Shown here: positions 994 through 63,812 of the stretch, piece by piece | How positions within the stretch are numbered: the stretch's first letter is position 1 | Layout of the letters: each line of letters starts with the position of its first letter | Origin: Octopus sinensis | Taxonomy: Eukaryota | NCBI RefSeq assembly: GCF_006345805.1 | Contig: NW_021835989.1 | Coordinates: 124,001 to 188,000 of the forward strand | DNA: 64,000 nucleotides | Direction of reading: 5' to 3' | Notes under the pieces: generated by a model | The model's input: only the letters and a program-made list of their open reading frames with translations | Databases searched by the model: none | Told to the model about the DNA's origin: nothing | Position numbers and translations under genes: made by a program

Positions 994-1466
994 TCACTCA
1001 GGTTTAAGCATTTGAAGGAAATCAAGTTTGGTAAGTGCCTTAGAACTGTTCTTCCTTTTATTTGAAGATTTTTGACGTCCTTGCTTATCCTCTGATTCTG
1101 CAGATAGTTCGGCCTTTCTTTTCTTAGCCTGGGACACAAATTTGAGAACGGCTCTTATTTGATAATATAACAGAAATACTTCTGACTTGTTCTTAGTAAT
1201 ATATCTTCCAATTCTTGGTCGTATGAGTCAAGAGATTGATGGAAAAACATTTCTGGCATTATGTTCTGTTAATTTATATTTTTAATATTACAATTGAACG
1301 GGAAGGTTTTATATCCTCGGAAATTGTTTCTGTATTGAAATCTTGCTTGCTTAGGATTACTGGGTCTGCCACTTTCTTCCGTAGGATTCTCCGGATGGAA
1401 GTTGACATGGCGTTTAAAGAATCTTGAATTGGGTTGTCGTTAGTATTGAAAGAAGTTTGGGTTCAT
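994..1466 (-). CDS. RRP15-like ribosome biogenesis protein (spliced, frameshifted)
   Basis: Manual splicing gives MSTSIRRILRKKVADPVILSK...EDILLRTSQKAVLKFVSQAKK...ALTKLDFLQMLKPE*. This resembles the RRP15 motifs (ILxKK..PxILSK, ATRGVVQLFNAV, SKKDFxxxL). Two ~26-nt GT-AG introns. Confidence 0.5.
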
Positions 1467-1689
1467 TTATATTAAAACTTGTTCAATTAGATTAACTAAC
1501 AACAAAAAAACGTGTTTTAAAAATTAATTTTGAAATATCATAAAAATGGTTAAAAATATAGAAATTATAGAAATTTAATTTTTAAGTTGATTAATTCTCC
1601 TAAAGTGGATAATTAAATTAAAAAGATACAAGGTCTTAATATATTTAAAAAATAACAAGTAAAATAGAGAAGTTAACTAAATTAGATGA

Positions 1690-1840
1690 GTCGCCGAGCG
1701 GATGGACAGGCAATTTCCACGTAATATCGCGAACGATATCCGCTGAAAAACCCAGCTCGTTTCACGACTATCGGGACTCTTTTTCGAGATGATTAAACCA
1801 ATCTCTTAAATATTTTTTGTCATAAACGCGGAAAAATTTC
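1690..1840 (-). mobile_element. CRE-type non-LTR retrotransposon 3' end relic
   Basis: Translates ...SRETSWVFQRISFAILRGNCLSI, the C-terminal motif also seen in the intact RLE ORF at 16246-16644 (WLFQRISIVILRGNC). Confidence 0.7.
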
Positions 1841-2279
1841 ATCCTGCTAATTATTTTATGGGTGGTTTTTTTTGACAAATTTGAGAATTTTAGGAGATGG
1901 CCGACCACGTTGAGCTGTGACAAATACCTCGAATGTTCTGATATTTTGACAAGAATCATCAATCTTTTTTATTATGGATCTTTTGAAAATTAAAATTTAA
2001 TGACTCCTTCAGTTTTTTCGCTCATCTCAAAATTTCATTTTGAAATTACTAACCGCTTGTTTTAAAATTTTCGGAACAAACTCCGCATTGGAGGTAACAA
2101 GATCGGACTTGTATTCTCTTTAGGGTACAAACATGTCAGGATGACGTGAAGAAGAATCATATAGCGTACATATCAATGCAATGCTAACTGGCCTGGCCTC
2201 TTTAAAATGAATTTTCCATTAAATTGCTTATAAAAATCAAAATTCCTATATATTATTTCAAATTAAAAATTAGTCTCAT

Positions 2280-4580
2280 TATCTAGTTAATTTAAATTGA
2301 TAAAAATATGACGAATCTGTTTCGATACATAAAATCTTTTTATCATTCGCACATAAACCAATTTATTTACCCTTTTTAATGATTTATAAAATCGTTCATT
2401 TTCAGGTATTTTCACATCCTAAACTCACTAAATTTGATAATAAATACAGAAAATATATTAAAACATTGCAGCAAATCAACACTGTTGGCAAGAACTACTA
2501 AATCTGAATTGTTTGATAAATCAAAAGCTGGCACGTGATTATGATATTTATTGTGTAAAAAATCTAAAATATTAATGTATATTTATTTGAAGATAACCAT
2601 GTAATAATCCTACTTTTTTGCATTTGTTATTCATCCATTGAGTATTATTAAATTCGTTAAAAGTTTGTTCATTCAATTTCAAAATGTTCCAAGAAAATAT
2701 TTTATTTTTAGTTATTTCTGAATTAGCAGCTATGCAAGTCCCATCCCAAGACCACACGATATTCTCGATTGGACAGTCCTCAATATAAAAAATAAAATAA
2801 TCTCAAATAAATACCAAAAACGTAGAACATTTTTGATACGTTGTTTTTGAATTTTCTCGTTCAAAAATATGTATACTTCCACAGCTGTAATAAACGACCA
2901 ATTTTGAATTATCGGCATTAAATGCAGACTTCATTACTGTACTTGACACCTCTTCTATTGAGCATTGTTTCGTCAATGTAATCGATTCGATAACAACTAG
3001 CTGGCCGTTTTTGGACCCAACACAAATTTGAGTGCAATCGTGACTTATTGTTATTGATGAAATTGGTATCTTTATGAAATAGTAATTATGACTTACATGT
3101 AATTTAATTATCTTAATTAATCTATTCGTCACTAAATCCCACTTTATTAATCTTCCAGACTCGTCTCCTGTTATAATAAAGTGATGGAGTCTAGAAGCAC
3201 ACAAATCCAATATTTTGACTGAATGACTCTAATGAAATTCACAATATATTCTAACTTCAAAAATCGTCGAGATTTGCATGTTTTTTAATAATAAAATTAT
3301 ATGATTTGAGGTCATCAAATACATCATGTGTGGTCCATCGGAGGATAAGTTTATCACATGTCCTTTATCCTGTTCGATCTAAAAATTGAAATGTGATATA
3401 TACTTTAAATGTGTTAATACAATGTTTTGTACCGACCTTCCAAATTTTCACGAACCCTTCATCGCAAGCTGTGGCGATTTTATTTTCAGTAATTACAAGC
3501 ATTGAAGAAATTGTCCCCGAATGGGCTTTATCAATACGATATAACATATTTTGTGATTCTTAAATTTCAAAAATAGTAGTTTATACTAAAACTCCAACAT
3601 TCAAGTGTGCCATTAGAGAGTCCAAGAACAATATCCCCGCTGTTGGTAAAAATACCACAAGTTGTGTGGCATGTAGGATCATATTTCTACAAAAATGGTT
3701 TAGAGATGAACTTTATTAATTGGAATTTTGTGCAATTCATTATTTTCAATTACAAAAAGCCATAAGTGCTGTTTGCTCCATGAAACAAACAAGTTTTCTG
3801 TTTTAGGTGAATAAATCAAATTATATTGCCTAAAGCACGATCCCTGAAGTTTATTATTAAATATAACGAGATTTATTTCAGCTATTCTTCTATCAGCCCT
3901 CCAGTTAAGGACAGCAACAAATACAGAAATATCTTGAAAGATCCCAACAAGGAACTTTCCATTCGACTACATTTGCTAGATATATTTTACAAGATCTGAC
4001 GAAAAACACAGTGAAGTCAGTTTTTTGACAGAATCGTCGAGTTTGATAATTTTTTTGGTTTGGAAAGTATACGAATCCCAAATTCTGATTATGATCTGAA
4101 TTATATTTTCAAAAGTAAAAAACATTTAAATTGCTTGTAGTTTCTGTTGTTGCATAAATTACTTTATTTGGATGAAAACAGATTCTAAATATTACTAAAT
4201 CAAATAAACATGTTTATATTGGATTCATGTTGATCATATATTCGTTGAGTGTGTTCATCTGGATCAAAAAATACTACAAATCTTCCAACATTATATGTCA
4301 ATTCTCGCGAATCATTAAAAAACATTTTTGATTTTTTATTGTCAAATAAATAACTAAAATTGAATCTATTATTTATTAAAAAACATCCATTCAATTTCTA
4401 ATTTGACGTCATCTTTTTTACTTTCATCTACAACATAGAAATTGTATTTATTTTTATTATTTTTCACAATAACTTTTCCAAATCTATTTTTTGAAGTCAA
4501 ATTTTGCTGATGATTTTTATTATTGTGATATTTCTTACTAAAAGTAAATTATTCATTAGGAAAATAACCAATTTAGACAT
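2280..4580 (-). CDS. EML/EMAP-like WD40 (HELP/TAPE) microtubule-associated protein
   Basis: KLEIEW|I-FNF...ELTYNVGRFVVFFDPDEHTQRIYDQH matches the HELP motif (KLKLEWVYGY...YFVASVVVLYN...QRHYLGH). WD repeats include AHSGTISSML..KIWK and GDESGRLIKWD. Many short introns; ends approximate. Confidence 0.65.
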
Positions 4581-6717: not shown

Positions 6718-7851
6718 ATGAACAACTCAAGTATCATATTTGAAGAAATAAATCAATGTTTTATCACAAATAATTTTGATTTGATAATACCCCCTGTCGG
6801 ACTTTTGTTTATTCGTTTGCTGTATATTTGTACAATTTTATCTTCTCTTTTCACAAACGCATTGGTGTTGATTATTTATCGATGCGGGAAGGGAGCAGGT
6901 GGACTCATTGGTGTATGGCTTTGCAACCTGGCTGCTGCAGATATAATATTGAATTTGTCTTATATTCCCATCACATTTACTGAAATGGTTCAAGTAAAGT
7001 GGAAAAACGGACATGTGACATGCCCACTTGTCAAATTCTTGAAACAGTCAGCAGTTTGTGCCACAATTTGGTTTGATATAACAATTGCCGTTGTCAGATT
7101 TGTAGCTCTGTTCAAACCTATGGCTACGAAAAAAATCAAACCGCATATAAAATCTATTGTGTTGTCAATTTGGATTTGTTCTGTTGGAATATCCTCAGTA
7201 AACTTGTTTATTTTGAAACAAACTGCAAGTGACTTTAGTTGCTCCATGCAAATCGAAATATGTCAAGAAAGATTGGAAGATCGAGGTTACGCAGCATTTT
7301 TGACTGCATTTTTATTAGTCATTCCATTGTTTTTAATAATCATAATATACACACTAATCATCATAAAGTTGTCAAATCCTATTTTTTTAAATAATATTCC
7401 AAAAAAGGTAAATCTGTGAATTCTACGTTGCCAGAAAATAATGCTTCCAGTAACCATAATACTGGTTTTTGTAATCTCTGGTCTTCCATACAAAATAACA
7501 TATATTATCTACATATTTTATCCGCGCTCATTTGCCGTGGAGGGAGTGGATGATGCTCGACATATCTATGCAATATTTTTTTCCACTCATTGGCTAATGT
7601 TGCTTTCTTCGTTGGCAAATCCACTCCTTTACATGTTTTTTAACAAGAATTACTGGGTAATTTATAATTTTAAATTTTTATAGTTGCACTGCAAATTGTT
7701 GTTCATAAAAATATGGCCACTGAAACAAATTAGGAAACAAGACTTGATTGGAAAGATTTATGAAAGCATTCATTTTAAGCCTTTGTGCAGTGACTATAAA
7801 CAGGAAATGACTAATCATAAAAAATCTTCTCAAAATTCTGACAATATTTGA
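6718..7851 (+). CDS. Class A (rhodopsin-like) GPCR, neuropeptide-receptor-like
   Basis: Seven hydrophobic helices with NLAAAD (TM2), the TM3 Cys, TM4 W, GLPY (TM6) and NPLLY (TM7). Two 27-nt introns (7408-7434, 7657-7683) join the ORFs in frame up to TGA at 7849-7851. Confidence 0.9.
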
Positions 7852-10344: not shown

Positions 10345-10954
10345 TTATAAACTAAATTTTGGTTCCCATTTCCCTGTGTTACGACTCAAAGTCACCAGAA
10401 AACGACCTAAAAATTCCGATTCTCATAAAATACAAGCAGGACACGTGACTATCTCTGACTTGACAGTACAGTCATACCCCCAAGCTTTCATAATCCCTCT
10501 AATAAGTCCGCATATATATGCAGTATACTACAATATATATACTATTTTACATCTTGAAAAGAACTTTTGTATTGTTCGCCGTTAGAAATTGACTCCAAAA
10601 ATAAAAAATTTGAATCTTCAATTACAAAACAATTTTCCTCTGGGTTTGACAGAGTTGCCTTCCGTCCTAAAAAGGAATTCCAAAACTCCTCAAATATCAA
10701 TTTAAGAATCTCTTCTATTTCTCCTAAAACTTGTTTCGTTATTGTAAATCTATCAAATGAATAAATTAAGTAACTTTTCTGCAAATTTTAACCCGGATGA
10801 GAACCCAATAGATTCAATTTTTGTCCTACCTGTGGTCTGGTTCGGTTATTAAAAGACCTACTTGGAATGTTTGGCCATAAATGGTTCGGTAATAAGATAA
10901 TAATTCGCCATGGTAATAATAAAACAAAGTCTTTTCGCCACTATTTGTATCCAT
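10345..10954 (-). CDS. TRAPPC6: TRAPP complex subunit 6 (Trs33)
   Basis: Spliced product: LFYYYHGELL...KIESIGFSSGLKFAEK|FT...ILKLIFEEFWNSFLGRK...FVIEDSNF...AYICGLIRGIMKAWG...PAC|RFLV. Four short introns. Confidence 0.85.
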
Positions 10955-14420: not shown

Positions 14421-14579
14421 AATATTTTAGAAAATAAATGAAAAAGGAAACGAATATTTTGTTAAAATTGATTCTCAAATATAATTACAACTATTTTTGA
14501 TACTAATAAATTTAGACAAATTTTATGGCCAATTTGAAAAAAATCAATTCTTAAAATTTAAAATAAACGCGTTTAAAAT

Positions 14580-16195: not shown

Positions 16196-16245
16196 TAAGA
16201 AATTTTTTTCATTTTATAAGATAGAATAGATTAAAGTCAAAATAT

Positions 16246-22249: not shown

Positions 22250-25200
22250 GAAACCTAAAGTCCCTCAAGTCTGAAATATTAGAACTGGTGATAACCGAAT
22301 ATCCTCTAGCAAACATAACAACACCACAAACCTAAAATCCTTAGAAACGATAAAAGGAGTCACAATGGCCAGTCCGACTCAACAACTCAACAAATTCCTC
22401 ATCGTGTGTAATCACTATGAGCTGGAAATTCCTCTGCTGGTGTCTACTACTCAATATTCTGCCCAATATTATTGTTCAACTCAACTCATTCAACGCATAA
22501 GCCAGCCCCTCAATGTTCGCACTGTCCAGGTTACTCGTCGGCTCGTCCAGTGCCAGAATCCCACAATTTATGCAGAATGCCTCAGCGAGAGCCAATCGGA
22601 TGATAAGAGAAGACAACATCTGCCATAAATATACTCCCCTCGACCTTCTGTCCTGCACTACAACCGCCCTCTCATATCAATGGCCGTATCGCCCTTAAGC
22701 ATGACCACTCTGTAGTTAAATTGGCGACGTTTTATCTCCAAAGGGGACTTTGAGTCCGTCTCGACTTGATATCTCAGTTCAATGCTCTCATATCTCCAGT
22801 TACTAACTACTCCCTACCATTGCCCTTGTAGATCGACCTCCACAACTCTCGGATTATCTTATTCAGTTCTTCCATCTTCTCTTGGTGATATATCCCCACA
22901 CACATTGATCCAACACTCGATAAAAGTCGTCCAAGTCCTGACATACATTCTCACATATTCTGAGACTTGCCAACGTCCTTCTATACTCCAATTCGGCATC
23001 ACTATAGTCCTTCTCGAGGGTTGTCCTCATTCGGTCCACATCCTCTCTGAGTGACTCCAATCTTGTCCCCAATTTATTCTCTGCCACTTCAATTTCCACA
23101 ATTACTTCGCCTGATAGGATCTGCAGTTGAGTCCAATTTTTTGATATTTCGGACTCCAAAAGTCTCCGTTTTCATCCGAGAATGTCCCCAATTGTCCTTC
23201 CATTGTTCTACTCATTTTGAGTCTCTTTTAGACGGATATTTTCAGTTAAAAGTATGTCGGATTGTCTTTTTATGTAAATATGTATATATTACGTCGTAAT
23301 TGGACAGCTCGTAATTTAATTTGTCAAGTTTTGTGAAATGATGGCCCTTTCTTCTGCCTATTATACGTAATAAATTGAGGTTAATTTGGTCAATCTCTCT
23401 GCAAATGGACTCCAGTTTTGGCTTTGAGTCAGTCTCGTACCTTCAAATGACACAAAATGTAATCACACTTTGATATTTTTTTTGTCATATCTACATTATT
23501 TCCAGATTTGACTTATAGACTGAACTGAATTTAAAAGTGACTCTGTTTTATGACGTCTCTGAGTCAACGATTTGTCTCTCTCCGTAGCTGCCGATTCCAC
23601 CTGGCTCTGAAACCCTATTTTATGCCCGAGTACCTCCAATTGAAGTAACTCGGCTTTTAATTTACACAAATCAATTTGTTTTTATCCATTTCTGAGTTTA
23701 AAGTATTTTGTTCAGATTTTAGTCGGTCAATGATTGACACTCCTTCCACAACACGTAATTTCTCATTTTCAAGTTGAGCGATATTTAATTCAAGTTGTGA
23801 TGACATTTTATTTGCTGATTGTATTAGATTATAATCCTCTTCTTTTTCTTTCTCAATTCACATCTAACAGTATAAAATCATAATAACACAATTTTTCTTC
23901 CACTATAGATTTGTTTGTGAGTCGTCATCGGTTTCTTGTGAGTCTTTTAGTTCTTCCTGAAGACTCTCAATCTCCAATGACAGAGAATCAGTCTCCAGTC
24001 TCAATTGATGTAGTAATGTCATATCCTTTAGCATATCTTTCCCATTCCTTCTCTTTTCTTTAAGGACATTTCCATAGAATCAATCTCCTCTATTTTTAAC
24101 TTATAATCAGCCAATTCTCCATTATTAGTGGCTAAATCCTGCCTTAGTTTTGTGACTTGTCCACCCAATTCATTCATCTAAATTACTCATTATTCCCTTA
24201 CTAGATCTCTACGTGGAATTAGCTGTTTGTAGGTGATTATAGGCTATTCGTAATTCATTCACTTTCTCAGTCTTTTTGCTGATTTGTCTGGGTATTGCTT
24301 TATTCGAGTATCAAGCTAGTAGGTTATAATATTATTTTATACTTCATCAACAATATCCGCCGTTCTGTCTCAGAGGCAAAAGGTCTGTGGCAGAGAGGAC
24401 AGCTCCTGTCGCCAGATTTTCAGAGAGCAAATATAGTTCTCAAAATGATCTTTACTTCCTGCTATAATCCGAGATCTCTATAGGATTGTTATAATACTCC
24501 ACCCTTCCAATGTCCGCAGTTGTTTACTGAGGGTATCTTCATATTCTTGCATATCTACTGACCCACACATATCGAATATATCTTCTTGTACTCCTATATG
24601 TTGGACTTATAAGGCAATACTGTTTTATTTCTCTCTTTTTAATTTAATTTGAGTTCTATTAATTTGATAATAATAATAAATTACGAAATAAAAGTTATAT
24701 TCGCTTCTAAAGAGGAGATTTTTGATTTTATGTCACCTCTGAGTGCTGCATTGGTAGAAGTGATACACTTAATTCTAACAAAAAATATCCCGCGTAAATT
24801 ACTCTAGAACATTCTGTAGGTTAACCAGTGCAGAAATTCTTTCTAATGGTATTCCAACAACCTGTTATACATTTCCTCATACTTGTCAAATCTAAATAAA
24901 AATAATTTATACATGTTCTTAATATTCTCACATTTATCAGCCTGTTGCTTCATTAGTAGAGAGAGCTGAGTCCTGCTGGCTGAGTGACGGTTATTTTGCT
25001 TGACTTTGGCTGTTATTTTGATATAGTCTTGCTCATATCTCATTTTTCCTCGTTCAGATATGATAGACGAGATTCAGCCAGTTCTACATCATTCCTCGAC
25101 TGGACAGACCTCAATTCCCCTTTGCTTTAATATAAAAATATATAAATACCAATAAAGTCAATTGGATGTCAATATTTGTCAATTTCTCCCACTTTGGTCT

Positions 25201-26844
25201 AATTCAGCCATTCTAATATTATACTGTCCAATTTAAGTTGTTGTTCCCCCTAAATATAAAAAACATGTCCAAACAAGCAGCTGTCTAGTAAAATGTAGTC
25301 TATGTGAACATGCAGAGTGTTTATTCCTCAAACTATCCAGTTCATCCCTCGACTCACTCTCATATACACTTGTTCTATTCTTCTGATCCTCCATTCACTT
25401 TCCACTGACTTTAATTTGGTGTATAATTCATTAATACATTCTTTGGAATTATTTAATAAATTCAGTTTATTAAATAATTCATTTTGTTTGTGTTATAATG
25501 TCTTTGATTACCTAACAGTCATTACACACACAATAACCCTCGATTCATGGACAAGACACCCCTTATCCACCATAAGGGATGATAATAAAGTATTTAATTG
25601 CTATTTTCTGTTGTTAAATCCTCATCTCTCACTCTAAGTTGAGAAATATTGAGTTCTCTTTGTCTTCATATTGGACACATGATCAGCCAATCTAGCACTA
25701 ATGTCCTTAATTGGGTCTGATTTTTATATTAATTAATTACCAGAAATTTCTCTTTGAGTGAATTAATAATAAATTTGCAATTATCTTCCAATCTTTGCAC
25801 AGTGGCGCGACATTGTTCTAAAATATGGACAGAATAGAAAACCCTTCTCCAAATGACGGGCTTTTTAAATGGACTAATTTAGCCTTTAAGCCAGCCAGCC
25901 GTTGCTATTAGAATTTTTATCGAGAAATAAACTTCTGACTCGTTGACTTGAAGTTCAACTTGATCAAGTCGGTCGTTCTTTGCACAATCTCATCTTCCTT
26001 CTCAGAAATGTCCATTCTCAGCTAAAATGAACCAAAATTAGCACAGTTTGAGCTTGTTGTCGTTTTTGTGTCACATAAGACATTATTCCACGAAGACTCT
26101 TAGCCTCTGCTAACTTTAAATTAATAAAATTAAAAAAACTTGTTCTTTTCGTAGCTTTGATATACAATCGAGGGCTTTGGAGTATTTTAGCAGAAGCAAA
26201 ATGGCATCAAATCTATCTTTGAGCACTTTTCCTTCACTCAGAGGCCTAGTTTAGCTATAAATAGGAATAAACCAAGTCGTGTCCTCTTGATGACAGAATA
26301 TAACATTCTCCAGGATAGATTTAGACACACCCAGCAGTTCAGCAATCTATATAAGGCTGACAAGTCTCCAACCTCCAGATTTAAGTCCCCACATCTTCTT
26401 GTGACATTACTTTTTGATCCGTCTGTCTCTTCTCTGGAGATTACACCGTCTAATGTCCTGCAGAGCTGTTTATTTGATTATTTATTTACTTTTCCTGTGC
26501 TTTGAAGGGATCTTTGGACTATGCAAGATTGGTTGGTCACTGAGGATATGGAGAGGCCAATTTGTGCCTTTAATTCTTTCTCGTTACATAGCTTTAGGGT
26601 TTTAGAAGATAATACTGAGGGTTCGTGGACAAAGGCACCTCCTTTGCTTCCAGGTGGCATATCTCCTGTCACCATGTACCGTAGACACTCGATTATAGTC
26701 TGGGAGTGGTTTAGAGTAGTACTGTTTTCCCTGATCCATTTGGCCGACAATTAGAGTTAGGGGTGTGTGGAACTCGATTGATTGGTATGTTTCTGGGCTA
26801 AAGCTTCGAATCCCCAATATTTTCATTTTTAAAATCATTGACAT
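22250..26844 (-). CDS. RAD50: DNA repair protein RAD50
   Basis: GIRSF..PLTLIVG.NGSGK|TIIECL Walker A; central zinc hook CPLC (~24385-24405); MRGRCSAGQK signature; [11 protein letters not shown] Walker B; ITHDEEF H-loop. Many mini-introns and frameshifts. The 3' end is approximate. Confidence 0.95.
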
Positions 26845-32267: not shown

Positions 32268-32748
32268 ATGTCAGAGTACCCAGGGTATGTTGTTGTTCAT
32301 ATTAAAAGTAACCAAGAAAAATCAAAATTCTACGAAATGATAGATCAGCTGATTAAAAGAGGGAATAGAACGTTATGAAGACTCAATTCCCAACTGTCTT
32401 CTCGAATCGCTTATTGTTTGCCTCCCCACTTAATCCATAGCCTACACCTGTAATTTCTCGAAGAGGCTCGTGCTGTGTCCCACTATGCTGGGAAGAAGTG
32501 CATTGATGTGGAAGATGTACGATTGGGGATCACTCTGAAGAAGGAGGCTGCAGGGAAGGATGTCCCCAGTCGGGAGGTCAGGACTATATTCTACTAAAAC
32601 ATAGTCACTGGATGAATTGGCTCGCCGAGTCAATTCTGTCCCCTTACCTCCAATCAGGAGTAATTCGACTCTTCCTCCTGATAAACTGTGCGTTGTGGCT
32701 GTCAATTATAAATTGACTGGCGATTCCAATAATCAGACTTTTTTGTAG
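32268..32748 (+). CDS. TAF9: TFIID subunit 9
   Basis: GIERYE..NCLLE..Y|..LEEARAVSHYAGKKCIDVEDVRLGI..PSRE|SLDELARRVNSVPLPPI..LPPDKLC..NYKL. Three short introns. Confidence 0.9.
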
Positions 32749-41330: not shown

Positions 41331-43979
41331 ATGGACAATCACAACTCCAAGAGAAATAAAGATTCTAAATGTCACTCAAATTGTGATTCAGAAAACCAAG
41401 TAACCTAAAACCAATCGCTCTAATTCCAATTTTATCACCGAGATAAACCTGATTCTATGGACGAATCTCCTGTAGCTCCTAATGAAAATCAAAAAACACA
41501 AAAAAATTCGAAATTTAGTGTCACTGATCTTGTCAATGAATCTGAACAAATTTTCCACAATTTTTCATTGTCAAAGATCATAAAATTATATCTTAAAGAC
41601 AAAACTGTTCTTAATGATATTTCCTCCTATGTGACAAAGCTCGAACAAAGTCAAATTAATCACGTGCTTACCGAAATGAAGCCTTTGAAGTTGCCGCCTG
41701 ATACTTCCTTCAAAGATTTAGAAAATAAAAAAGAATTTAACTCTCTCGAGTATTCTCCGAATGCATTTCCTCATATTGCTTATGCTCTGGAATGCCCTCT
41801 GATAAACGGGGACCAGATTTATGAGTATCAAGTCGAAACCAATGCCGTCTGGTTCATCAGAGTTCTCGAAATAGAATATCCGCTAATCAAAGCTCAGTTT
41901 TTAGGGGACAAAGAAACTTTTTCCATTAAAATTGACTCACCGAAAATCAAACAACTTTACCACGGAGGAGAAAACGGCCTACTTTATCGATATCCTCCGT
42001 TCATGGATGGCAAAAACATGCAAGAAGAGATTGCACAGACTTTGACGGATTGTTATTCGTTTAAAGATGAATTCCTTATAAAAGTATTTCTCTCGCATTA
42101 TTCTTAGAAAAATATATTTACATGGAGCTCTCAGGGTCTTGTGGGAAGATACATGGAGGTGAAGCACAGGAGAAGACACTTGTCTATGGTTTGGTTCGCA
42201 CAGATCATAAAAAACGTTGGAGGATATTTATTGCTGAGATGGATATGCCCGAATAAAAAATTCCGTGAATTTTGGATTTTTTGCACTTCGCATAGACTTT
42301 GCCCTGTTGGGTATGGTGCACAGAATAATGTTGAATATGGATTCCCCAAAATGGAAGGTATGTTGACTGAATACTTATTTTTGGAGGATTCAAAACGTTT
42401 GAGATATCTTTGGGGTTTATATTTGTGTGTTTTTTATTTTTGAATACAGAAGTGCTTTCTGTGCCAGCATTTCTATTTGAGGTAGCCTAAAATTTCTAAC
42501 TTGGTTTAGATTCCCTTTGAAGTAACCGTTCATAAACTAAAAGTTGGAATGGCAGTCGAGGCTTTGGATTTGAAGACCAGACAGATTCTCTTTCCAGCAA
42601 AAATTAGCGAAATAATCGACCACACGTGCATTAAAATCGATTCAATCGAATCTGGTACAAAAATTGAATCTTTTTATTCTCTTTCTGATGGAATCTTTCC
42701 TGTTGAGTTTTCTGTAGACCACAAACTGCCTCTTACGTTTTCTGATGGTTGTGCTTGGTGGTCTCATGTTAAAGGACCAGAAAACTTTTCAGTGGAGTAA
42801 ATATACAGGGATTGGAAAGGGACTTGAAAGAGCTCCAAAATCGATTACAAGAACAAAAATAATTAAAAAAAACTATTTCTTTCAGTTCAAGAAAAAGCCT
42901 GGATTCGAACCCGGGATGAAGCTTCAAGTGATTAATCCTACGAATAATCAAATTGTCTGCCCAGCAACGATCCTCAAAGTTGCTGGACATTTGATTTTTG
43001 TCAAAATAAACGAGGAATCGCCCTTGATGTATTCAGTCTACAGTCCTCAAGTCCTCCCCTTTGGGTGGGCTGAATCAAACGGTTATCCACTCAGTCAGCC
43101 ACAATTGCCATCCTTATGTGAACAAGATAGAAGTATACTGTTGAAAGCCCTTTTATCAAATATGTTGGACGACCACGTGGAAATTAGGAGAATTGATGAC
43201 CTTTGGAGTCCTGAGATCTTCATTAATGCTCATTGCTACTCAGGGAAGTACCTTTATGTGTCAGAAATACTTCGAATTCCCAAAATAATTGGACCTGGGC
43301 CAATTTGTTTGGTCCTTAAGTCACTATATGAGTATATTCTTAAATGTACATCAAATTTTAAACGTCTGAACGGAATTTTAAGTGTTTTCGGAGATTTAAC
43401 CAGTTCAATACAGATATCCGTAAAAAAGTATTTTTGAATTTATGTACTTAATAAACAGTAAATTCGACAGTTTTCACAAGTTTGAGGTCTGTGATTCTGC
43501 GGGACAACTGAGTCACTTTCTACTCAAATTGTGTCTAAAGTTAAAAGTTTGTCCGAATTTAATATCCCTCGTCGATTTATCAGGAAAACCTTGTTTACTA
43601 TGTAAATTTAAATAAATTAAATTAACAAGGCAACCCCAAAATTACAAAATCCAAGAAACGCAAAAAAGATTTCTCAATTCCTGAGATCTGCTCCAAGCCT
43701 AAGAGAAAAATCGAATGTAGTCAAACTCTGCCACTTTCTGAGGAAAATAAAAATTCCCTACTAAAAGACCCACGGGACTGGACCTGTGAGAATTTGATAA
43801 AGTACATCGAGTCTACGAAATGCCGGAATGTGGCTCCCGTGCTGAGATACCAGAATTTTGACGGACAGTCGTTTCTCTTATTGAACAAACGAACGTTGAA
43901 GGATTCCCTGTGTCTCAAAGACACAATTTCGGACGCCCTTCTGAAGATCATCAACGAACTGAGAAACTCCTACTATTAA
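41331..43979 (+). CDS. SFMBT-like Polycomb protein (MBT repeats, SLED, SAM)
   Basis: MBT motifs LKVGMAVEALD, FEPGMKLQVI..PATI..PFGWAE..GYPL; SLED CYSGKYL..IPKIIGPGPI; C-terminal SAM PRDWT..FDGQSFLLL. Confidence 0.85.
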
Positions 43980-45815: not shown

Positions 45816-46418
45816 CTACTCGTCATTGGCCATTTCAGCAATAGGGTTGGCATGTATAGTGACAGAGAGGATAGAAATATCATCCAAAGGACGGTGTGTC
45901 TTCTCATCCACTTCCACCTGCTCCATCTGTTGGAGAGTGCCGAATCCGTCAATCAGTCTCAAATATGCTTCAAATGCCATACTTTCCAAACACGCTGTAT
46001 TTCATGTCTAAGGATGTTTGTTTGGAATAGGTTATAAAGAATTGAGATTTGTTGGTATTAGACCCACTGTTGGCCATGGACAGCACTCCACGGGAGGCGT
46101 GCTTCAGAGTCCTCTTGAATTCGTCCTCGATGGGACTCCCCCAGATGCTCTGACCGCCCTTTCCAGTCCCTTTCTTGTGGGTTTCATTAAAGTGAACCTG
46201 AAGGGTCGCCACCCTGAACAATGAAACCCTTATATTTCTGTGGAAAATGCAGTGATTGTAATATTCAGAGGCGCAGAGAGCCAGGAAGTTCTACAATTTT
46301 TATTTTTTGAACGTGGCATAGTTTTGGACAATCTTCACAAAAAAGTTCAAATTTTAAGTCTCCGAGTGATGTATGAAGGGTACATGACTGTTTTAATTAA
46401 TGCACCACAGCAAACCAT
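45816..46418 (-). CDS. PPIL3: Peptidyl-prolyl isomerase-like 3 (cyclophilin)
   Basis: M|SCTLHTSLGDLKFELFCEDCPKLCH|NFLALCASEYY..FHRNI..GDPS|GTGKGGQSIWG..MANSG..SQFFITY..VTIHANPIA. The first exon is the ATG only. Confidence 0.92.
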
Positions 46419-46858: not shown

Positions 46859-49656
46859 ATGCCCTACAGTAATGGAATGGAAAACCTAATAACAGTCATC
46901 GACAAAATACAAAATGCCTTTACATGTTCTTCTCTGCCCTGCAATCTCGATCTCCCTCAAATCGTCGTCGTCGGCTGCCAAAGTGCAGGCAAAAGCAGCG
47001 TATTAGAAAATTTTGTCGGAAGGTTTTGTACATAAAATCATATTTTTAGAGATTTTCTGCCACGGGGGACTGGAATTGTGACCCGAAGACCTCTGGTTCT
47101 TCAGCTGATCAACTCCGATGAAGGTTATACATGTCATAATGCACAGAATATGGCGAATTTTTGCACAACTCAAGCAAATACTTCAACTTTAACGATATTC
47201 GAACTGAAATTGAAGCAGAAACAACGAGATCTTGTGGAACCAACAAAGATGTTTCCGACGTTCCAATAAACCTAAAAATATTTTCCCCAACGGTAAAAAA
47301 ATCAAAAATAAACATTTTAGTGATTGATTTAACTTTGGTCGACCTTCCAGGACTCACAAAAATTGCTGTGGCGGGACAAACCACGAGGTCATTGGGGTAA
47401 TAAGGAAAATGGTCCTCAAATTTATCGAAAACCCAAACAGTCTCATTTTGGCTGTCACCCCTGCCACGACTGACTTGGCCAACTCTGACGCCTTGCAATC
47501 GCAAAGGAAGTGGACCCTCTCGGACCCGCACTATTGGGGTCATTACTAAGCTTGATATGATGGACACGGAAACCAATGCACGGGATATTTTGGAAAATAA
47601 ACTCCACCTTTGAAAAGAGGTTGGATATGTGATTTATTTTAGGATATGTCGGGGTGGTTAATCGTAGTCAGCAAGATATCGAACAAAATATTCCGATTGC
47701 TGTCGCCCACAAAAAAGAACGTCACTTTTTTAACAACCATCCTTCATATAAGTACTAATACTACATGATACTATTATTAGACATATGGCTGATCGAATGG
47801 GAACAGAATTTTTACAAAAAACGTTAAATCAACAACTTTTACAACACATTTTTACTGTCCTTCCTTCGCTGCGACAAAAAATATCTGAAAACCTGAATGT
47901 TTTAGAATCGCAAGTAAAGGAAATCGAATCAAGGGGAGGTTCAATGTCCCACAAGTTATTGATATGGTTATTTTTGCGTATTTCTTTATTAATAGCGCAA
48001 TCGAGGAGTTTTCTACTATTTTGTCCGACAATATAATGTCTACGCATACGACTGCGTTGGTTAATGCTCAAAGATTGTCGATTGGAGCTACAATAAATCG
48101 ATGCTTTTTTAAAACCCTTCCAACAAATTACAAAAAGTTATTATTATATTTAACAGATATTTGATGAAAATAGTAATCAAATTCTCCAAAATATACGTCT
48201 AGCTATTCAAAACGTGCATGGCGTCAAGTTAGTGATTTAATGTCTATACAGAACTGGACTTCATACACCAGATTTGGCATTTGAAATGATTGTCAAAATG
48301 GATTTTGAAAAAAGCGCCATTCCTATTAAATCCTGCTTGGAGGAAGTCTACAATTTTACTAATCTCGCAATCGAGGAAGCTCACAAAACGGTTTGTAAAA
48401 AATTATTCCATTCAGTTTGAGGAATTTCCATATTTGCAGTCGGCAGTGGCACGGATTGTGTTAAATGCACTGAATGTACCACCAGAGACGCTGAGTCAAA
48501 TTGAGCTCAATATAGATTTTCATTTGAATTATATCAACACAAACCATCCTGATTTTATCGGAGTTCCCACGTATTTTTATTTTTTTTTCAATTTCAGGCA
48601 GAAACATAAACGAGAAGAACGTACAGGACCGGTTTGTTTAATTACAATAAATTAGCTTACTCAAAAAAGGGGTACATTACAATAAGCAATTTGTTGACGA
48701 CAAAAATAAAGGACACGTTTATTATGCCGCATTGGTCACCGGAAACCTTGTGTTATACAAAGATGAAGATGTAAATTTTATATTTCATTTTGATTAGGAA
48801 AAGACAAAAACTGTCGATTTCTGTCACTAAACTTCGTTATCAAATTCCTGAAGATTTTAGCACACTTTCACAATTTGTCTTGTCGGATATGACATCAAGT
48901 TCATAGGGAGTTATATTATTTTAGGGGATGTATATTTAGGGACTTGAAAATCCTCCATTTCCAGTGTTCCATTTTAGTGAGTGTAACGATTGGTTGGTTG
49001 CCCTCATCGAAATTGGACTGAGGCCGCTCGATCCAGCAAATCAAGTCGAATTATATGTTTGATATTTCTAGAATTCGTATGATTTAGAAAGAGGTGTAAA
49101 TGACGTTAAGAGTGTGTTGAGTCATATATATATTTTATGAAAAATTATTCTCGACATTATTCCAAAAATATTTTTCATTGTTTTCTTAGCAAAGTCGAAA
49201 TATTTTTAATTCCTAGATTGTGAAGTATTGCAAAAAAGGTTTAATTGCTGAATTATATTCCCAATGGCCGATTGTATATTAAATAATTATATTATTAATA
49301 GGAAGAACTGCTAAACAATCTCCAGAAAAACTCGCTCATGATCAAGAAATCGTCAGACTCTACCAGGCCACCAAGAAGCCGCTGAATATATTAAAATGTT
49401 CACAACGAAGTCACACAAAATCAAATTAAATTTCCGACTTCTCGGTCACTGTCAACTTTTTGTGAATTTCTAGACACTCAAATAATTTAGTTTCTTCTGG
49501 CAATCACAAAATGCGTCTAAAGACACATTATTCACTTTAGATCAACAGGAAAATAATATTCAGTTTTAATTTTTTGGTAATTTTTTAGAAATCCACTTCC
49601 ACTGCCTCCGTAAGATTATTTTGTTTTAATTAGATAGTCGCCCCAATAGAAAATGA
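46859..49656 (+). CDS. Classical dynamin (GTPase, stalk, PH, GED)
   Basis: [24 protein letters not shown]|[32 protein letters not shown] and a PH-like KKGYITI block. Many 20-29 nt introns. The 3' end is approximate. Confidence 0.93.
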
Positions 49657-52173: not shown

Positions 52174-52181
52174 CTGATGAC

Positions 52182-53185
52182 AGTGCCGCATGTCTGAGTT
52201 TCAGAAATCATATGAAACACATAGAAGTAACAATCTACTAGGATTAAAAAAATTAATAAAATTTGCGAATTTTGCTTGTTAGAATTTTAGAAAAAAATTG
52301 AAATCGTCACGTCCATACACAAATCCAAAGCAACGAATATGGCCATAATGATTCTTTTCAAGCATAAAAGTAATTGCCGAAGCTTTTCGGACAAATCTAC
52401 CACATGACAGCATCTTCTAGGTTGTCCATCGCAGATTCGCTGAAAAAGCTCGCTCGTCTCCCCCGGTCGTTTGTTTTCGAAAAATTCTTCTACCATTGTC
52501 AGTGAGAAGTTGATTCGCTACCTTTTCAACGATGGCCCCACACCGGCATTTGTGGAGTCCGGCAAATCTCCAGTCCAAGTCTGGTGCTGATGCCGATGCG
52601 GACAGTATCGTCGTCAAGGTGGGTTCCGACACTATCAACGGGGAGTGCGTTGATCCAAGCTCCACTCGATTCGCATCTTCCAGTCACTAGACAGGCACGT
52701 CTGTGTTGGTTTGATTGGATCAGAAGCCTCTTATATTTTTCCTCGCAGATGTTCCTGTCTTTCTGCTCAGGCTCATCCTCCTCGAATGCGCCATGTCTGT
52801 GATTTCAGATGATTCAGTTTGGAGTTGGAGAATCATCCTGATCAGCAGTCGGCTGGAGTCCAAAGAGGATAGATATGCGGGGCAAGCTAGATCTTTCGGA
52901 GAAGGGATTCCCAGTCCGCCCAGGTTAACGGGTAGGGTCGCTTGGTCTCACCCTTGGTCGTCGAATTTCACATGCGTTCAATGGTGGTCCGAAAGAGACA
53001 ATCGATATTGTCGAGCTGTTGCATTTCCAGGTAGCAGGGTGCGCCCCGAAGAACGTAATTCAGTTTCTGTGCTGACAAGGCGTTTTTTAGCAGAAATAGG
53101 AAGGTATGTGCGTCTAGCGTCTCAAGACGTATGAATGTTGTTTTTAGTTGTTGTTCTTTTGTTATTAGTGTTACTAAATCCAGCA
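52182..53185 (-). mobile_element. CRE-type retrotransposon 3' part with internal deletion of most of the RLE
   Basis: KLNYVLR..P, GGLGI, SGAWINALP..LG, HKCRCG, then a jump to the C-terminal LFQRI motif. Confidence 0.85.
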
Positions 53186-53212
53186 ATCCTCTTTTTTAGT
53201 TCCCCAAAGAGT

Positions 53213-55559: not shown

Positions 55560-56960
55560 ATTAATGAATACGACAACATTAAAAAGATATTATGTGGAAT
55601 TCAAATGAGGATACCAATACTCAGAGGAATCGCAGATTGCGAAAAAAATCCTCACATTTTTTCGTGAGGAACAATAAGTTTTACGTTTAATCTAATTTTA
55701 TTTATACGTTTTTCTGAAAGGAAATATTGAAAATTGGTTATTCCTCTCGACTGTGAGTCAGAGATGGAAGCCCACGCCAGGTCGCTGCATGTGATCTCGC
55801 ATAAAGGGATAAACAAAATAGAATTTCTCTGCCGTCAAAACTACTTTTATAAAAAGTAGCGTTAATAAAAAGTTATTACTGAATGTGAGATATGTAAGTT
55901 TTCCCTCCCTCTTAAAGTTGTCCTTTTTAAATAACGTTTTAGACTGTTGACGAGAATAATCATGTTTTTTGCCGTTGTTCCAAATGAGCGGTTTCAGATT
56001 GATCTGATAGATTTGAAAAGGTTTCAAAGTGTCAACCAAGGATATAAATGGATCTTATCCGTGATTGATATTTATAGTCGGTATTAATTTATATATAACC
56101 AAATTAGTTTCGCCTTTGCAAGGCCATTGCTTAATAAGTCGGCAATTGAAGTATGCCACAATTTGGAGGATCTTTTCTACGTACATGGGCCATGTAAAAT
56201 TCTACAGTCGGACAACGGGACAAAATTTAAAAAATGCAGAAATTCAAGTTTATGTCAAAGGTTCAGAATACTTCACATTCATGGAAGACCAAACAATACT
56301 ATTCTACCAATTAATTTTTAGGGTATAGTGGAACGTTTTAATCAAACGATAACAAGATCAATCGTCAAACTTATTGAAGAAATGGGAATCATAATGAATG
56401 GATGTCGATTCTACAGTATGCAGTTTACTGCTACAATACGACAATGCATTCGTTCTCGAATGAGACACCTTTAAACGCTATCGAGGAATTTCGGGGATAA
56501 TTCCTTCATATGGACGAAATCACAGAAGGTGATACATTTAGACTTACTTTTAGACTCAGTGACGAGCTTGATTGACGATTCAACTATTTCTGAATCCACT
56601 CATCAAAGCGGTTTAAATTCATAAATTACAATATTGTAGAATGCTTTAATTTTCAGATAACTCCAATAGGAGGTGACGACAAATACTACAAGCGTATGAA
56701 TAGAAGAATGGGTGTCCATTGTTCGAATATACAGTTATGCTATTGGAGATAAGTTAAAATTAATGTGAATTTAATTTAGGTACGATTTGCTAAAGATCAC
56801 GGAACGAATCCATCTTTGAGACTCGATAAGTTCGAGTCCCATATTTCTGAGACTTGCAAAATAATCTCAATTTTATCAAATTCACGTGTCGAGGTATTCA
56901 TCAAATTTATGTTTGCATCAAATTTCCCGATGGAAGAAGAACATCGTATTAATGTCTAGG
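55560..56960 (+). mobile_element. Ginger/KRBA2-like DDE integrase (rve) with mini-introns, decayed
   Basis: PNERFQIDLID..YKWILSVIDIYSR|FAFARPLLNK, LQSDNG, G.VERFNQT and YNTTMH. 27-nt intron at 56081-56107. Confidence 0.8.
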
Positions 56961-57262
56961 ATAAAAAATGATTATCTTTGTTTTTCTCTTAATAAAGTTT
57001 TCTTCATTATCCAAAGAATATGTCTTAAACAAATAGAAATCACAGTTTCTCTTATTTTTTCCTGTATGTCATTATTGAAATTTGCTGAATTGAAACACAT
57101 TTTTAATCTGATTAGATACAATATCAAATATTGTCAGCCATCTATGATATCATTATCAAAAAATATATAATAGCAAATTTTTTTCAAATCGAGATTCATT
57201 TCAACAAATTCCAATAATATCCGTCTATAAATAAATTTAACTTTATGTGCTCTATAATCAAA

Positions 57263-58209
57263 ATGAAATCATGTAAAATTTGCGGAGCCAGAGCTAATGG
57301 AACACACTATTCTGTCAGAAGTTGTCACGGGTGCAAAAATTTTTTTCAGTATATTTTTGTATAATTTATTATTAGAAGATGCATCAACAATAAATACATG
57401 TTCTTTTGCAGATTGAGGGAAATTGCATTTTAACACAAAACAAGAAATATTGCAGATTTTGTAGGCTAAAAAAATGTTTAGAAATGGGAATGACAAAACA
57501 TGGTTATTCAATTTATTAACTTTAGAAATTAAAATACATTTTCAATATCTTATGAGGTACAGATATTTCCAAGCCAGTTTATTACGTACGAAACTGAACT
57601 GCAAGTTGAATTATTCATAACAATTGTTAGAAATATTTCGATTTTAACTGCTTAAATTGCTTTTTAATGAGAACTTGTGTAAGCCAAATTAGAAAAATTG
57701 TTTTCTAAATTTGACCAAAAATGGATTGAAATTTTGGTTCAAAGTGAAAATCTGATCGCCCAGATTGTGGGATCATATATATAATTATTTTTAGGACGTC
57801 GAAATGGTCTCTAAGAATTATTTTCATTTCCATTTTTCTAACTGCTGTTTGAGTCAAATTTCGAAAAATTCTTCCCACAAACTCACGTTAATATGAATTG
57901 TAACAATGGTCCGATCTTAAGCATACTGAAACAGTTTAAAGAATTGTATCAAGCTATTACTGATTTACATATTACGAAAGAAGAATATTTCTATTTAAAA
58001 ATTATTTATTTTTCAAATTTTGTAAATTTTTAATGATATTCTTAGATTCAGACGAGGTGAATGATTGTGAGCCTATACTATTCAAATATCTTGCATTATT
58101 AGAAAAAAATTGCATTTCACGGAAAAAATTAATCACAAAAGTTTTAATTTTGTTACCGGATTTCGAAAATCTTTCTTTAACATTTAAAAACTTTTTAATT
58201 CTCTATTAA
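57263..58209 (+). CDS. Minimal nuclear hormone receptor (C4 zinc-finger DBD plus shortened LBD)
   Basis: MKSCKICGARANGTHYSVRSCHGCKNFFQ|RC...C..GNC..CRFCRLKKCLEMGM. LBD remnants EEYFYLKIIYFSN and KVLILLPDFE. Short introns. Confidence 0.85.
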
Positions 58210-58880: not shown

Positions 58881-58894
58881 GTTATTCTCTCTCT

Positions 58895-60024: not shown

Positions 60025-60162
60025 TTTGGTAAAATAAGGCACTCAACTCTAAATGTGTTGTCAAATCACTTAATTTCATGATTTAGGGAGTTCGTCCTTA
60101 TCCAATTGGACGATAGATTTCAACGATTTTTAAACATGTTCCATTTTTATTGTTTTTGGAAT

Positions 60163-60435
60163 TCAATTTTCCTGATGAATGACATGGCAGATAGCCAGAG
60201 TATTGCCTCTGACTATGGCTATAGATATTCTTTCGATTAAATACCGGTGCTCACACGGGTCGCCGGTAACCCTTTCGATTAATGAGGCAATGTGCTGGAG
60301 TAAGGTCCGAGTAGAAGGCCCCTGTATTCCTGACGTCTCGACAGCCAGGGGGACAAACACTCTGCCATTCCCAATTCCAGCGTATTTCTCAGCTTTTCTC
60401 TTCTCAGCCCGTTCAGACGGGGCTCCCGGACTCAT
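60163..60435 (-). mobile_element. CRE-type RLE C-terminal fragment
   Basis: AEKRKAEKY..FVPLAVETSG..LIERISIAIVRGN. Confidence 0.85.
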
Positions 60436-60599
60436 TTTTATCGAAAAATGACAAATTTGTTTATTTGTTGTGGTGGTGTAATTTTTTCCCCATTTGTGAT
60501 TTTGTCACTTCATTGTTGTTCTTCATTGTACTGTCTCATTTTCTGTGTATCCCATTGTATTGTCTTATTTTCTGTGTATCCTATGATTCTATTCTAATC

Positions 60600-61150
60600 T
60601 ATTCATGGAAAAAGTAGATAATCCCACATGCCTTTCTTGCGAAAAATCGAACAGACGGAAACGTGGAATTAATTGCTCGACCTGTGAGAATTTTTTTTCC
60701 ATCTTTCTTGTATTGGTCTCAAGAGGAAGCAGGGATTTGCCCTCCAGACGTGGAATTGCCCTTCGTGCGTAGTTCCTGGATGGTGTCCACCTCCTTTTGC
60801 CCTTCCGTCTCTGATGCAGAGAATTTCCTTCCTGCGATATCTGTCCGCTTGCGACGGTGCAGGTACATCCCGTCAGGATTCCGAAGACAGTAAGGTTACT
60901 TGCTGCGGAGAGTCTTGCCACCTTGATCGGAAATGTCACGAAGAAACACTCCGACGCAAATGCGAAATTGTGACTGTCAACACGGACGAACTTTCCTTTC
61001 GTAAGTGGATGACCGAATTCGACAAACTGCTACCTGGATGCACCTTCCCCCTCAAAGAAAACTTGATTTTTCTTGGATCTCCTATTTTTGAAAGTGCTAT
61101 CAAAGCTGTTATGAAGGCTAAAATTTCGGAATTTTCCCTTCTCTCTTAAA
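60600..61150 (+). mobile_element. CRE-type RT fragment
   Basis: KCEIV..LIFLGSPIFESAI thumb-region motif, preceded by decayed N-terminal remnants. Confidence 0.55.
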
Positions 61151-61329
61151 ATTACGTTGTGTGGATAGCCTGACGATTCTAAAAGTATAAACAACAACAG
61201 TTAAGTACAAATAAATTTTAAAACTGAAATAATGTACGGAAACGACACCTTAATAAAGATTAAATCCAAAGAATATTAGAATACATAATTTAATAGACTA
61301 CACGAATAGGAAAAAATAAATAAGACAGT

Positions 61330-63812
61330 CTACACATTGGAGACGGCATTCTTAGTGACACTCTCGAGAAAGCCCTCGAGAGCCACATCATCCGTCAACA
61401 CCAAATACGAGTCCTCACTACTCCTCGAAGGATTCACTTTATTCAGCAGAAATCTCTCCTGTGACCCATCATGCCTCGTCTGTATCAACCGAGCCACTGG
61501 GAATCGACCAACCAATATTTTCTTGGCATCCTCCAAGGGGACAGTGAACAGTTTATCCAGATAGGAATACTCTTGCCTCTTGTGTAGTTGCTGGTCGTAG
61601 TAATAGGCCACAGCACGTCCGAAATATATCAAGACAGAGAAGAATGTGTCCATCAAGAGAACATGATCCTCCTTTATACTCGAGGCGTCCAGTGGGGCAT
61701 TCTGCACACAGAACTCGATTCCATTGTTGGTCACCAAAAAGGAGTAGGATTTGAGACAGGTTGAATCATTATGAGAGAGTTGGTCACATTCTCCGACATG
61801 AAAATATGTCTGTTGTAGGATGTCTCGTCGGGACTGTTTTACTTGTCCGTGAAAACTGAGACCGACGGAGGTGGAATACAAATTGGGGGACCATTGTGAA
61901 ACGGGGGTGGAATCTGTACGACTGAGGACAGTTCGCCTGGTAGTCCCCGAATTGAGCACACTACACTTAACCACCACAACAAACCAATTGAACCAGACAT
62001 TTGTCAAAGTAACGAGCTATTTTGAATGTATAATCACAACTCGCTTGATATAGACCTTTCCTTGTCAGTAAAACAGTCCCAGCAAATTGGTCAAAGTAGT
62101 GGGGAATCATGTGACTCTCATTGGGGCCAGACCAACTAGAACATTCGAGAATAATCCACTACTTTCTAGCCACCGTCGTCACTCGGAGATGTCTTCGTCC
62201 ATCAGTATGCTGATAGTTGGTCATAAACTGAAAGTAGGCCTGTCCACTGGGAGTGACATTCTTCTTATTCTCATTCCCGAAATAGAAGGCCAGAGTAGTG
62301 CGGGTGTGAGTGCACATACTTTCCACAAAACTGTGCCTCCACTCCCAATCACAGTGGAGGACACAGTCGAGTCCTTCTGAGAGTGCGACTGGACATGTCC
62401 GATAGCCCCGTTGATGACCAAATCTCCACTCACCTTCACCTTCACAGCAGCATTGAGTCCCATTTGTAATTGTCCGTGAGAATCCTGCTGGAAAAGTGCC
62501 CGAATATTCTGGACAAACAACTCCGAATCGAACGAATCGGCCAGAATGATATTCCCTCTGGCATTACCCAGCATTATACCCAGTCGAGTCCACACACGCC
62601 GACATTTCGTGGATGCCCGTCTCCTTGGGAGTGCACGAAAATATATCCACTGCCTGCCCGTTCTGGGATGCCCTCTCTGCCAGCCGAGAATAATGCTACA
62701 ACACAACACGACTGCCACCTTCATTGCTGTGCTCATATACTCACAGTTGTCTGTCAATATGTCGTGGTGGGTTCGGATTGGCTTCTTCAAGTCATCACTG
62801 CACACTTGGCCAGGCCCAGTCGTGCATGGCCCGCCTGTGAAGAGCAGAATTCTCCCTCCCAGGTTAGGAGTCAACACTTCCAGGAGACTTATAGCCAGGG
62901 AGAGTGCTGAGCCTGTTGCTCTCAGTGGGTGTCTTCCTTCCGTCACATTCCACACATCCTGACTCAAATCAGTTATCAAATCTCCCAAATTGGCATCACA
63001 TTCCTCCAAACGTTGCAAAAATCTAAATATTTTAATACTCAAACTTATTTTCAGTCACAGTACAACTCGATCTACTCGAATCGACATTCTCCAGCCCCAG
63101 AAAACTCTACTAAACTGGAATACAGGATCTGACCTTAAGTTGGTCCTTTGAGTATGTTTTCGACCCTTTGAAGACATAAGCCCGGGCCACATCCTCACAA
63201 AAGAGTTCATGAATGTACACAACACGGAAAAGGAGATCAGCCCGACATATGCCTGTTGGGGCAGCAGGGCAAGGGTGGTGGAAAGCGTCTCCCTCAGTGA
63301 CGACATCTCCACTTCATCAAGACACGTGTCCACCACAAATAGAAAGACGGAAGGACGTGGTGGAACTTTCTAGAACATTCGAGAACATAAAGAACGAGAA
63401 TATATTCCACGGAAGGAAGTACAAGTTCAGCAACTTTGTTTTGTTCCGTCATTCCGTGATAGTGCGGAGGCATCTACAACTGGTGGGAAATACAATTACC
63501 ATGTTTCTTCCGTGACAAAAACAGCAAATCCAGGCGTGTTGTTGATAGTTGATTTGGCTGGAATATACAAGAATAATACCAGTGGAGGTTAAGGATGCCC
63601 TCACATTGGTGTGTTGGGCATTTAAGAGGCTCGTAGGGAAGTTGAATTGTTGTCTTTGGGTTGGCAAGGGGAGTGAGTAGACAGCCCATTGGGATTATTG
63701 TACGACTGGCCTCTGTTCGGGATGATGGGAGGAGATTCCATGAAAAGCGTACTCCACATGTCTCCTCTGTATCGTTTATAAACTTGTCTAGTGCTCGGTA
63801 ATGGTCTTCCAT
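61330..63812 (-). CDS. SEC23: COPII coat subunit SEC23
   Basis: [16 protein letters not shown], zinc finger [38 protein letters not shown]-like, [10 protein letters not shown] and LTDDVAL. Introns of 22-26 nt. Confidence 0.97.

Follow-up and report, generated by a model that had tools for sequence, protein, structure and literature searches.

The question raised by the DNA studied here is whether the tiny GT-AG gaps that interrupt its genes are spliceosomal introns and, if so, whose. The window, by which we mean the whole stretch analysed, comprises 64,000 nucleotides (nt) of a 218-kb unplaced contig (G000:C12460:124001-188000) in an Octopus sinensis assembly of 2.72 Gb and 13,516 contigs, including chromosome-size ones; it is AT-rich, with a GC content of 26-44%. 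An earlier sequence-only reading had proposed that such gaps split the window genes, and this is confirmed by 39 curated introns of 20-29 nt. On the strength of genomic comparison, we consider it highly probable that the gaps are major-class spliceosomal introns of a dicyemid, that they occupy ancient animal positions and that small deletions have probably reduced them almost to the minimum length for splicing.

Intron lengths were obtained with a protein-to-DNA aligner written for this analysis, in which the cost of an intron is independent of its length (minimum 12 nt), GT-AG ends are favoured and non-canonical ends carry a higher cost. With the same aligner, introns of the host orthologues measured 87 to ~7,900 nt and the gaps in well-aligned parts of the window genes 22-29 nt, with GT-AG ends. 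Where frameshifts made the alignment poor, a few calls that were long or lacked canonical ends were replaced by hand from cleaner duplicates; boundaries set by hand were four in dynamin and three 5' boundaries, and one TRAPPC6 boundary was corrected. For the G-protein-coupled receptor (GPCR) and the nuclear receptor, boundaries were based on Pfam continuity and frame. The resulting 39 introns in seven genes (dynamin 16, SEC23 8, PPIL3 4, TRAPPC6 4, TAF9 3, GPCR 2 and nuclear receptor 2) have a median of 26 nt and all are GT-AG. Adding 42 introns from other parasite contigs, with the cleanest copy of each gene taken, gave an extended set (n=81) of 21-31 nt, again with a median of 26 nt and with GT-AG ends in 81/81. 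Ab initio models, which miss stop-free introns of a length divisible by three (3n), were left out of all counts, and the set of 81 also excludes DNM1L calls from poor alignments, the cyclophilin duplicate at L030 and one cyclophilin call of 38 nt with non-canonical ends. Among the insertions and deletions between window genes and their duplicates, 61 of 87 are single bases in homopolymer runs, and the window intron lengths are therefore good to ~1-2 nt. The range of 19-32 nt first suggested holds in the curated set as 20-29 nt. No well-supported intron below 20 nt was found, and the ab initio calls of 15-19 nt are without homology support, several differing between copies; at the upper end, ab initio calls of 31-37 nt recur in one gene with MBT domains.

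The positions of the gaps argue for introns. Host orthologues allowed a comparison for 31 of the window introns: 26 lie at exactly the host codon position and phase, four lie within a few codons, all in poorly aligned parts, and one has no counterpart; the gaps are therefore not due to chance. This supports the earlier proposal of ancestral animal positions, and the spliceosomal type is supported by the GT-AG ends and by the homologous frame that is restored at conserved positions when the gaps are removed. Matches of the window introns to human positions are presumed. For RPS13, a gene of other contigs, the human match comes from the supplement of Hadjez et al. 2026 (PMC13644364).

The longest series of introns is in dynamin (46859..49430, forward strand, gene end approximate), with 16 of 20-29 nt at 47023-47049, 47124-47146, 47293-47320, 47620-47642, 47752-47780, 47967-47995, 48137-48156, 48228-48251, 48391-48415, 48571-48597, 48632-48655, 48771-48797, 48899-48924, 49045-49071, 49194-49216 and 49274-49301. 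Thirteen are at the exact host position and phase and three within ~4 codons, and a duplicate on the window contig has a stop-free frame after splicing. The series 27/23/23/29/20/24 nt read initially covers six of the 16, its '20' being 21 nt in the duplicate. The in-frame segment 47293-47320 was considered as an exonised intron and rejected, because an ordinary phase-1 intron occupies this place in the duplicate. SEC23 (61330..63812, reverse strand) has eight introns (63558-63579, 63474-63499, 63370-63395, 63107-63133, 62696-62718, 62558-62579, 62136-62162 and 61961-61984), seven at the exact host position and phase and one within two codons; their range is 22-27 nt rather than the 22-26 nt first given. 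PPIL3 (45816..46418, reverse strand) does begin with an ATG-only exon, as had been noticed, and in the host gene an acceptor AG stands directly 5' of residue 2. Its introns at 46388-46415, 46291-46312, 46170-46197 and 45958-45982 measure 28, 22, 28 and 25 nt, within the 22-28 nt reported, with the '22' being 24 nt in the duplicate; the three internal ones are at host positions, and one further host intron is missing. In TAF9 (32268..32748, forward strand), the two internal introns (32416-32440 and 32577-32604) coincide in position and phase with the two introns of the host gene, and the first (32285-32308) has no host counterpart; the 24 nt read for it is right for the window, and all three other copies on the contig have 26 nt.

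Three further genes complete the curated set. TRAPPC6 (10345..10954, reverse strand; Pfam TRAPP) has introns of 23-27 nt at 10837-10861 (alternatively 10830-10857), 10750-10774, 10528-10550 and 10407-10433, the last being the 27-nt intron at the PAC| junction that had been pointed out; its boundaries come from alignment to the host gene, the first being placed by hand. The host TRAPPC6 that was found (L114, G000:C8:103428262-103428705) is intronless, and the parasite gene has four introns. The rhodopsin-family GPCR (6718..7851, forward strand) has two 27-nt introns (7408-7434 and 7657-7683), as direct frame reading bears out, each with an in-frame stop, and Pfam 7tm_1 positions 2-182 and then 206-260 fall on successive exons. 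The nuclear receptor (57245..58209, forward strand; Pfam zf-C4 and Hormone_recep), modelled from a cleaner duplicate, has the expected FFQ|R junction at a 27-nt phase-2 intron (57349-57375) and a 23-nt intron (57503-57525); its additional introns are less certain.

Could the gaps be unspliced, having arisen by insertion into dead gene copies or as errors of an assembly built from noisy long reads? The window genes do contain many frameshifts, and beyond 11 kb most of the window has one to three further copies on its contig, mostly at 92-98% identity, a pattern of segmental duplication or of uncollapsed haplotypes from noisy reads. However, the duplicated blocks are without most of these frameshifts, and duplicates with few or none retain the same gaps with open frames; moreover, the gaps have GT-AG ends and stand at host intron positions. 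The frameshifts reflect pseudogenes or a low-quality consensus, of which the homopolymer insertions and deletions favour read error, and the introns are unaffected either way. A more distant comparison is offered by a second dynamin on another contig (L105-L107, G000:C9990:10118-12712), which is only 64% identical in protein to the window dynamin and nevertheless retains all 16 introns. Identity between the two copies by codon position is 74/81/49%, and their intron interiors are 50% alike, compared with a mean of 47% and a maximum of 52% for permuted pairs; the interiors are thus saturated. Ten of the 16 intron length differences are not multiples of three, and the spliced frames of both copies are stop-free. 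That the gaps are not spliced out is therefore improbable in the extreme. For SEC23, PPIL3, aldolase and RPS13, no second type was seen in the assembly, and the second dynamin is therefore better regarded as a paralogue than as the gene of a second species.

To whom, then, do these introns belong? The host of the assembly is a cephalopod: its chromosome-size contigs encode molluscan haemocyanin (37 matches), and one functional unit reaches 490-502 bits with 1JS8, 6R83 and 4YD9, which we take to be octopus and squid haemocyanin entries, the next entries scoring 378-385. The window proteins are remote from named sequences, SEC23 being at most 37% and PPIL3 at most 65% identical to any. An aldolase on a small contig (C8901) has its best match in Dicyema acuticephalum, at 87% identity with one intron read through and 95% once five GT-AG gaps of 25-28 nt are taken out; with the unspliced query, the next animals reach at most 61%. 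The D. acuticephalum protein has no residues for the five gaps, and its gene is reported to have been cloned from both complementary DNA (cDNA) and genomic DNA (PMC2222250). The tetranucleotide profile of the window correlates with that of C8901 at r=0.97 and with three host regions at 0.79-0.84, and the window and C8901 have a repeat in common. Taken together, the aldolase identity, the matching composition and the shared repeat make it very likely that the window is DNA of a dicyemid, a kidney parasite co-sequenced with its cephalopod host. RPS13, on two further small contigs, points the same way: it carries the unusual, dicyemid-type residues of D. japonicum RPS13 and the same three introns, here of 27, 26 and 25 nt and there reportedly of 24, 24 and 24 nt (PMC13644364 supplement). 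About 117 of 151 residues are identical to D. japonicum (~77%, by hand count); all four tiny-intron RPS13 loci among the matches listed are of this one type, which is not near-identical to D. japonicum RPS13. The species is thus apparently one other than D. japonicum, near D. acuticephalum, and the earlier pointer to dicyemids, made before any search, finds support in both genes. That reading had not recognized the window as parasite DNA within a host assembly, or the trait as one already on record for this group.

Real introns in a contig of a myxobolid myxozoan, or of some other eukaryote with tiny introns, would also account for the lengths, as myxobolid introns have medians of 22-27 nt and the same weak signals (PMC13644364), and no window gene could be matched to a named dicyemid sequence. 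However, the PPIL3 of the myxozoan Thelohanellus kitauei is 57% identical to that of the window, below many other animals, the host is a cephalopod and not a fish or an annelid, and most genes searched show one tiny-intron type in the assembly, which for aldolase and RPS13 is dicyemid. With T. kitauei affinity low and D. acuticephalum the best aldolase match, a myxozoan origin was dropped, and a different lineage for the contig seems to us very unlikely. We also rejected the presence of parasite DNA within host chromosome C10 (L130, r=0.94), which had no match to the parasite loci compared. No 18S ribosomal RNA (rRNA) was found in the 30 loci scanned. Partial large-subunit rRNA pieces occur at L088:6681-8020 and L096:1688-1942 (G000:C9315), on a contig with a 99% identical SEC23 copy, and can be used to place the species of the window directly.

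How might a spliceosome recognize these dicyemid introns? Signals were counted on the 81 curated introns, part of the percentages including three boundaries corrected later. The branch consensus CTRAY occurs in three introns against 4.2 expected, so the absence of a branch-point consensus noted from the letters stands in that respect; there is, however, a weak excess of A at -7..-11, and T is present at -6 in 53 of the 81. A pyrimidine occupies position -3 in ~86%, exonic A, A and G precede the GT in 49, 56 and 56%, respectively, position +3 is T in 52% and A in 28%, and the 5' consensus GTAAGT is not present in the 81 introns. AG is rarer than expected in the last 12 nt (16 vs 29). The small nuclear RNA (snRNA) survey that had been recommended, in which U2 and U6 family searches returned their best 48 scored matches, mostly host copies, was fruitful for U6: an intact copy (110.7 bits) that preserves ACAGAGA, AGC and the internal stem-loop occurs on three parasite-like contigs (L121, L122 and L123), which correlate with the window at r=0.97. 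This U6 is 100 nt long; its 5' hairpin is greatly shortened, and its catalytic core is unchanged. For U2, the survey yielded a 5' fragment only among the matches listed.

That fragment bears on the idea that a modified spliceosome, for example one with an altered U2 branch-site helix, removes the introns. The Rfam U2 match on the window contig (48.5 bits, cut-off 46) leaves the canonical sequence just past the start of the branch-site helix, which speaks for this idea. However, it consists of a dispersed repeat (40 scored places) preceded by the initial ~38 nt of canonical U2, and is therefore uninformative on the working U2; for this reason, its reading as a complete dicyemid U2 whose branch helix is altered was rejected. 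Because, in addition, the U6 catalytic core of the parasite is canonical, and U2 and U2AF are reported to be conserved in myxozoans (PMC13644364), we regard a modified spliceosome as unlikely. The U2 fragment lies at 17604-17628 of the window in a shorter, altered form and at G000:C12460:6424-6461 (L077) in the ~38-nt duplicate, next to a repeat of several hundred bases. Remnants of a reverse transcriptase lie directly upstream, on the opposite strand. One possible origin of the fragment is a truncated pseudogene, another the target-site relic of a U2-targeting retroelement of the Keno/Utopia type.

A further property of the introns concerns their frame. In-frame stops occur in 21 of the 25 introns of length 3n and in 29 of the 56 others (Fisher p=0.007), and the excess persists in shuffles (p=0.023). 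This suggests, in a small sample, proofreading based on transcript decay. It is possible, although we lean slightly against it, that a dicyemid other than D. japonicum is hidden in the assembly and that animals at the splicing floor use nonsense-mediated decay for proofreading, their 3n introns being selected to carry stops as in Paramecium.

Several points weigh against the interpretation as a whole. Splicing is read from DNA and protein comparison, so that the handling of these introns by the splicing machinery is inferred for the window; in other dicyemids, the removal of such introns is reported to have been shown by cDNA (PMC2222250). Neither the aldolase nor the RPS13 gene is on the window contig. 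What ties their contigs to the window is composition and the style of the introns and, for the aldolase contig, one shared repeat. Protein searches, including SEC23 and PPIL3, gave no named-dicyemid match for any gene of the window contig. The branch-site signal is weak, with A at 37% in -7..-11 and 26% in -12..-16 (p=0.0015, interval picked after looking), and a full parasite U2 was not found among the matches listed, which contained the 5' fragment only. Finally, the stop excess is less significant when the terminal NAG is kept constant (p=0.057) or when internal stops alone are counted (p=0.10), and introns of length 3n show no overall depletion (25/81).

Within the favoured explanation, the introns would keep inherited, ancient animal positions, and small deletions would have brought their lengths down almost to a size floor. 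Splicing would be of the ordinary U2 type, with the spliceosome reading each intron as one unit (intron definition), possibly guided by exonic AAG before the GT, a loose branch A ~7-11 nt from the end, a short stretch of T and the first YAG; a retained intron would shift the frame or bring in a stop, and nonsense-mediated decay would remove the transcript. The proposal that introns shrank in place rather than being lost fits those that are present. It does not extend to the many host introns that are missing, as dynamin keeps 16 of 18, SEC23 8 of ~20, PPIL3 4 of 5, TAF9 2 of 2 and aldolase 5 of 6, in total 35 of 51 (two to four of the ~20 introns called in host SEC23 are uncertain). About one-third of the host introns in the compared genes are absent and were probably lost outright, and some host-only introns may have been gained by the host. 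Every host intron after residue 542 is gone from parasite SEC23, which has no in-frame insertions where introns are missing. At 42-44%, the GC content of its exons exceeds that found elsewhere in the window. Such a pattern is expected from gene conversion by 3' cDNA, and dynamin does not show it; a general 3' bias of intron loss was rejected, as SEC23 alone shows one.

The remaining genes of the window carry ab initio introns. RAD50 (22270..26826, reverse strand; Pfam AAA_23 and SbcC_Walker_B), with models on two duplicates, would have ~20 more tiny introns, mostly 22-29 nt. A gene with MBT, SLED and SAM domains (SFMBT/SCM-like; 41331..43979, forward strand) has calls of 24-37 nt, and those of 31-37 nt, found in all three copies, are the longest recurring calls in the window. 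A WD40 gene (2498..4125, reverse strand) has calls of 24-27 nt and some longer uncertain ones; a copy of part of it (window 2702-3594) on L122 (G000:C2687), 93-97% identical, is split by an insertion of ~580 bp. An unnamed short gene without Pfam match (994..1408, reverse strand) has two 26-nt calls (1266-1291 and 1154-1179). Much of the intergenic space is occupied by transposable-element remnants, with a decayed retrotransposon lacking long terminal repeats, a DUF659-like transposase and integrase remnants at 14550-19500, 34380-35820, 50600-55400, 55700-56500 and 60160-61150. A tandem repeat of ~95 bp at 29100-29800 has ~76% identical copies elsewhere on the contig and on C8702.

Tiny, position-conserved introns of dicyemids are already published (2007-2026); to these, the present analysis adds a further dicyemid genome, hidden among host contigs, and, tentatively, the stop-codon signal. 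A study by Ogino in 2010 reportedly also deals with dicyemid miniature introns and may discuss stops in retained introns. Our literature search, which covered sources outside subscription journals, found nothing on Dicyema 3n introns, Dicyema snRNAs or dicyemid contigs in cephalopod assemblies. Parasite contigs are many in this cephalopod assembly, and annotation pipelines that accept no intron shorter than 30-40 nt will mis-annotate them as host genes. The extra genome offers material for weighing intron loss against shrinkage and an approach to the question, left by Hadjez et al. (PMC13644364), of how a spliceosome fits on 21-31 nt.

Similar introns are known from three systems. Paramecium has GT-AG introns of ~25 nt, and its 3n introns are reported often to contain in-frame stops, which are interpreted as a safeguard that works through transcript decay (PMC5014332). 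Unlike the parasite, it is a ciliate, and 3n introns are described as under-represented in several ciliates (PMC5014332), which they are not among the 81 here (25 are 3n). Myxobolids, with medians of 22-27 nt and conserved positions, were analysed alongside D. japonicum by Hadjez et al. 2026 (PMC13644364), whose main text contains no analysis of 3n length and stops; they likewise show little signal beyond GT and AG, with a weak A stretch as putative branch site. They are a cnidarian lineage and hence convergent, and have 'GTa' where the parasite is T-rich at +3. For dicyemids, the reported lengths are 26.2 +/- 1.9 nt for 16 position-conserved introns of D. acuticephalum (Aruga 2007, PMC2222250), a median of 27 nt in Dicyema sp. 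(Zverkov 2019, PMC6543705), a mean of 38 nt in a dicyemid (Lu 2019, PMC6736024) and a median of 24 nt, with quartiles of 23-25 nt, in D. japonicum (PMC13644364 supplement). D. japonicum differs from the parasite in its slightly shorter introns and in RPS13, to which that of the parasite is ~77% identical. With dicyemids in general the parasite shares short, uniform introns (here with a median of 26 nt, n=81), conserved intron positions, a cephalopod host and fast-evolving proteins.

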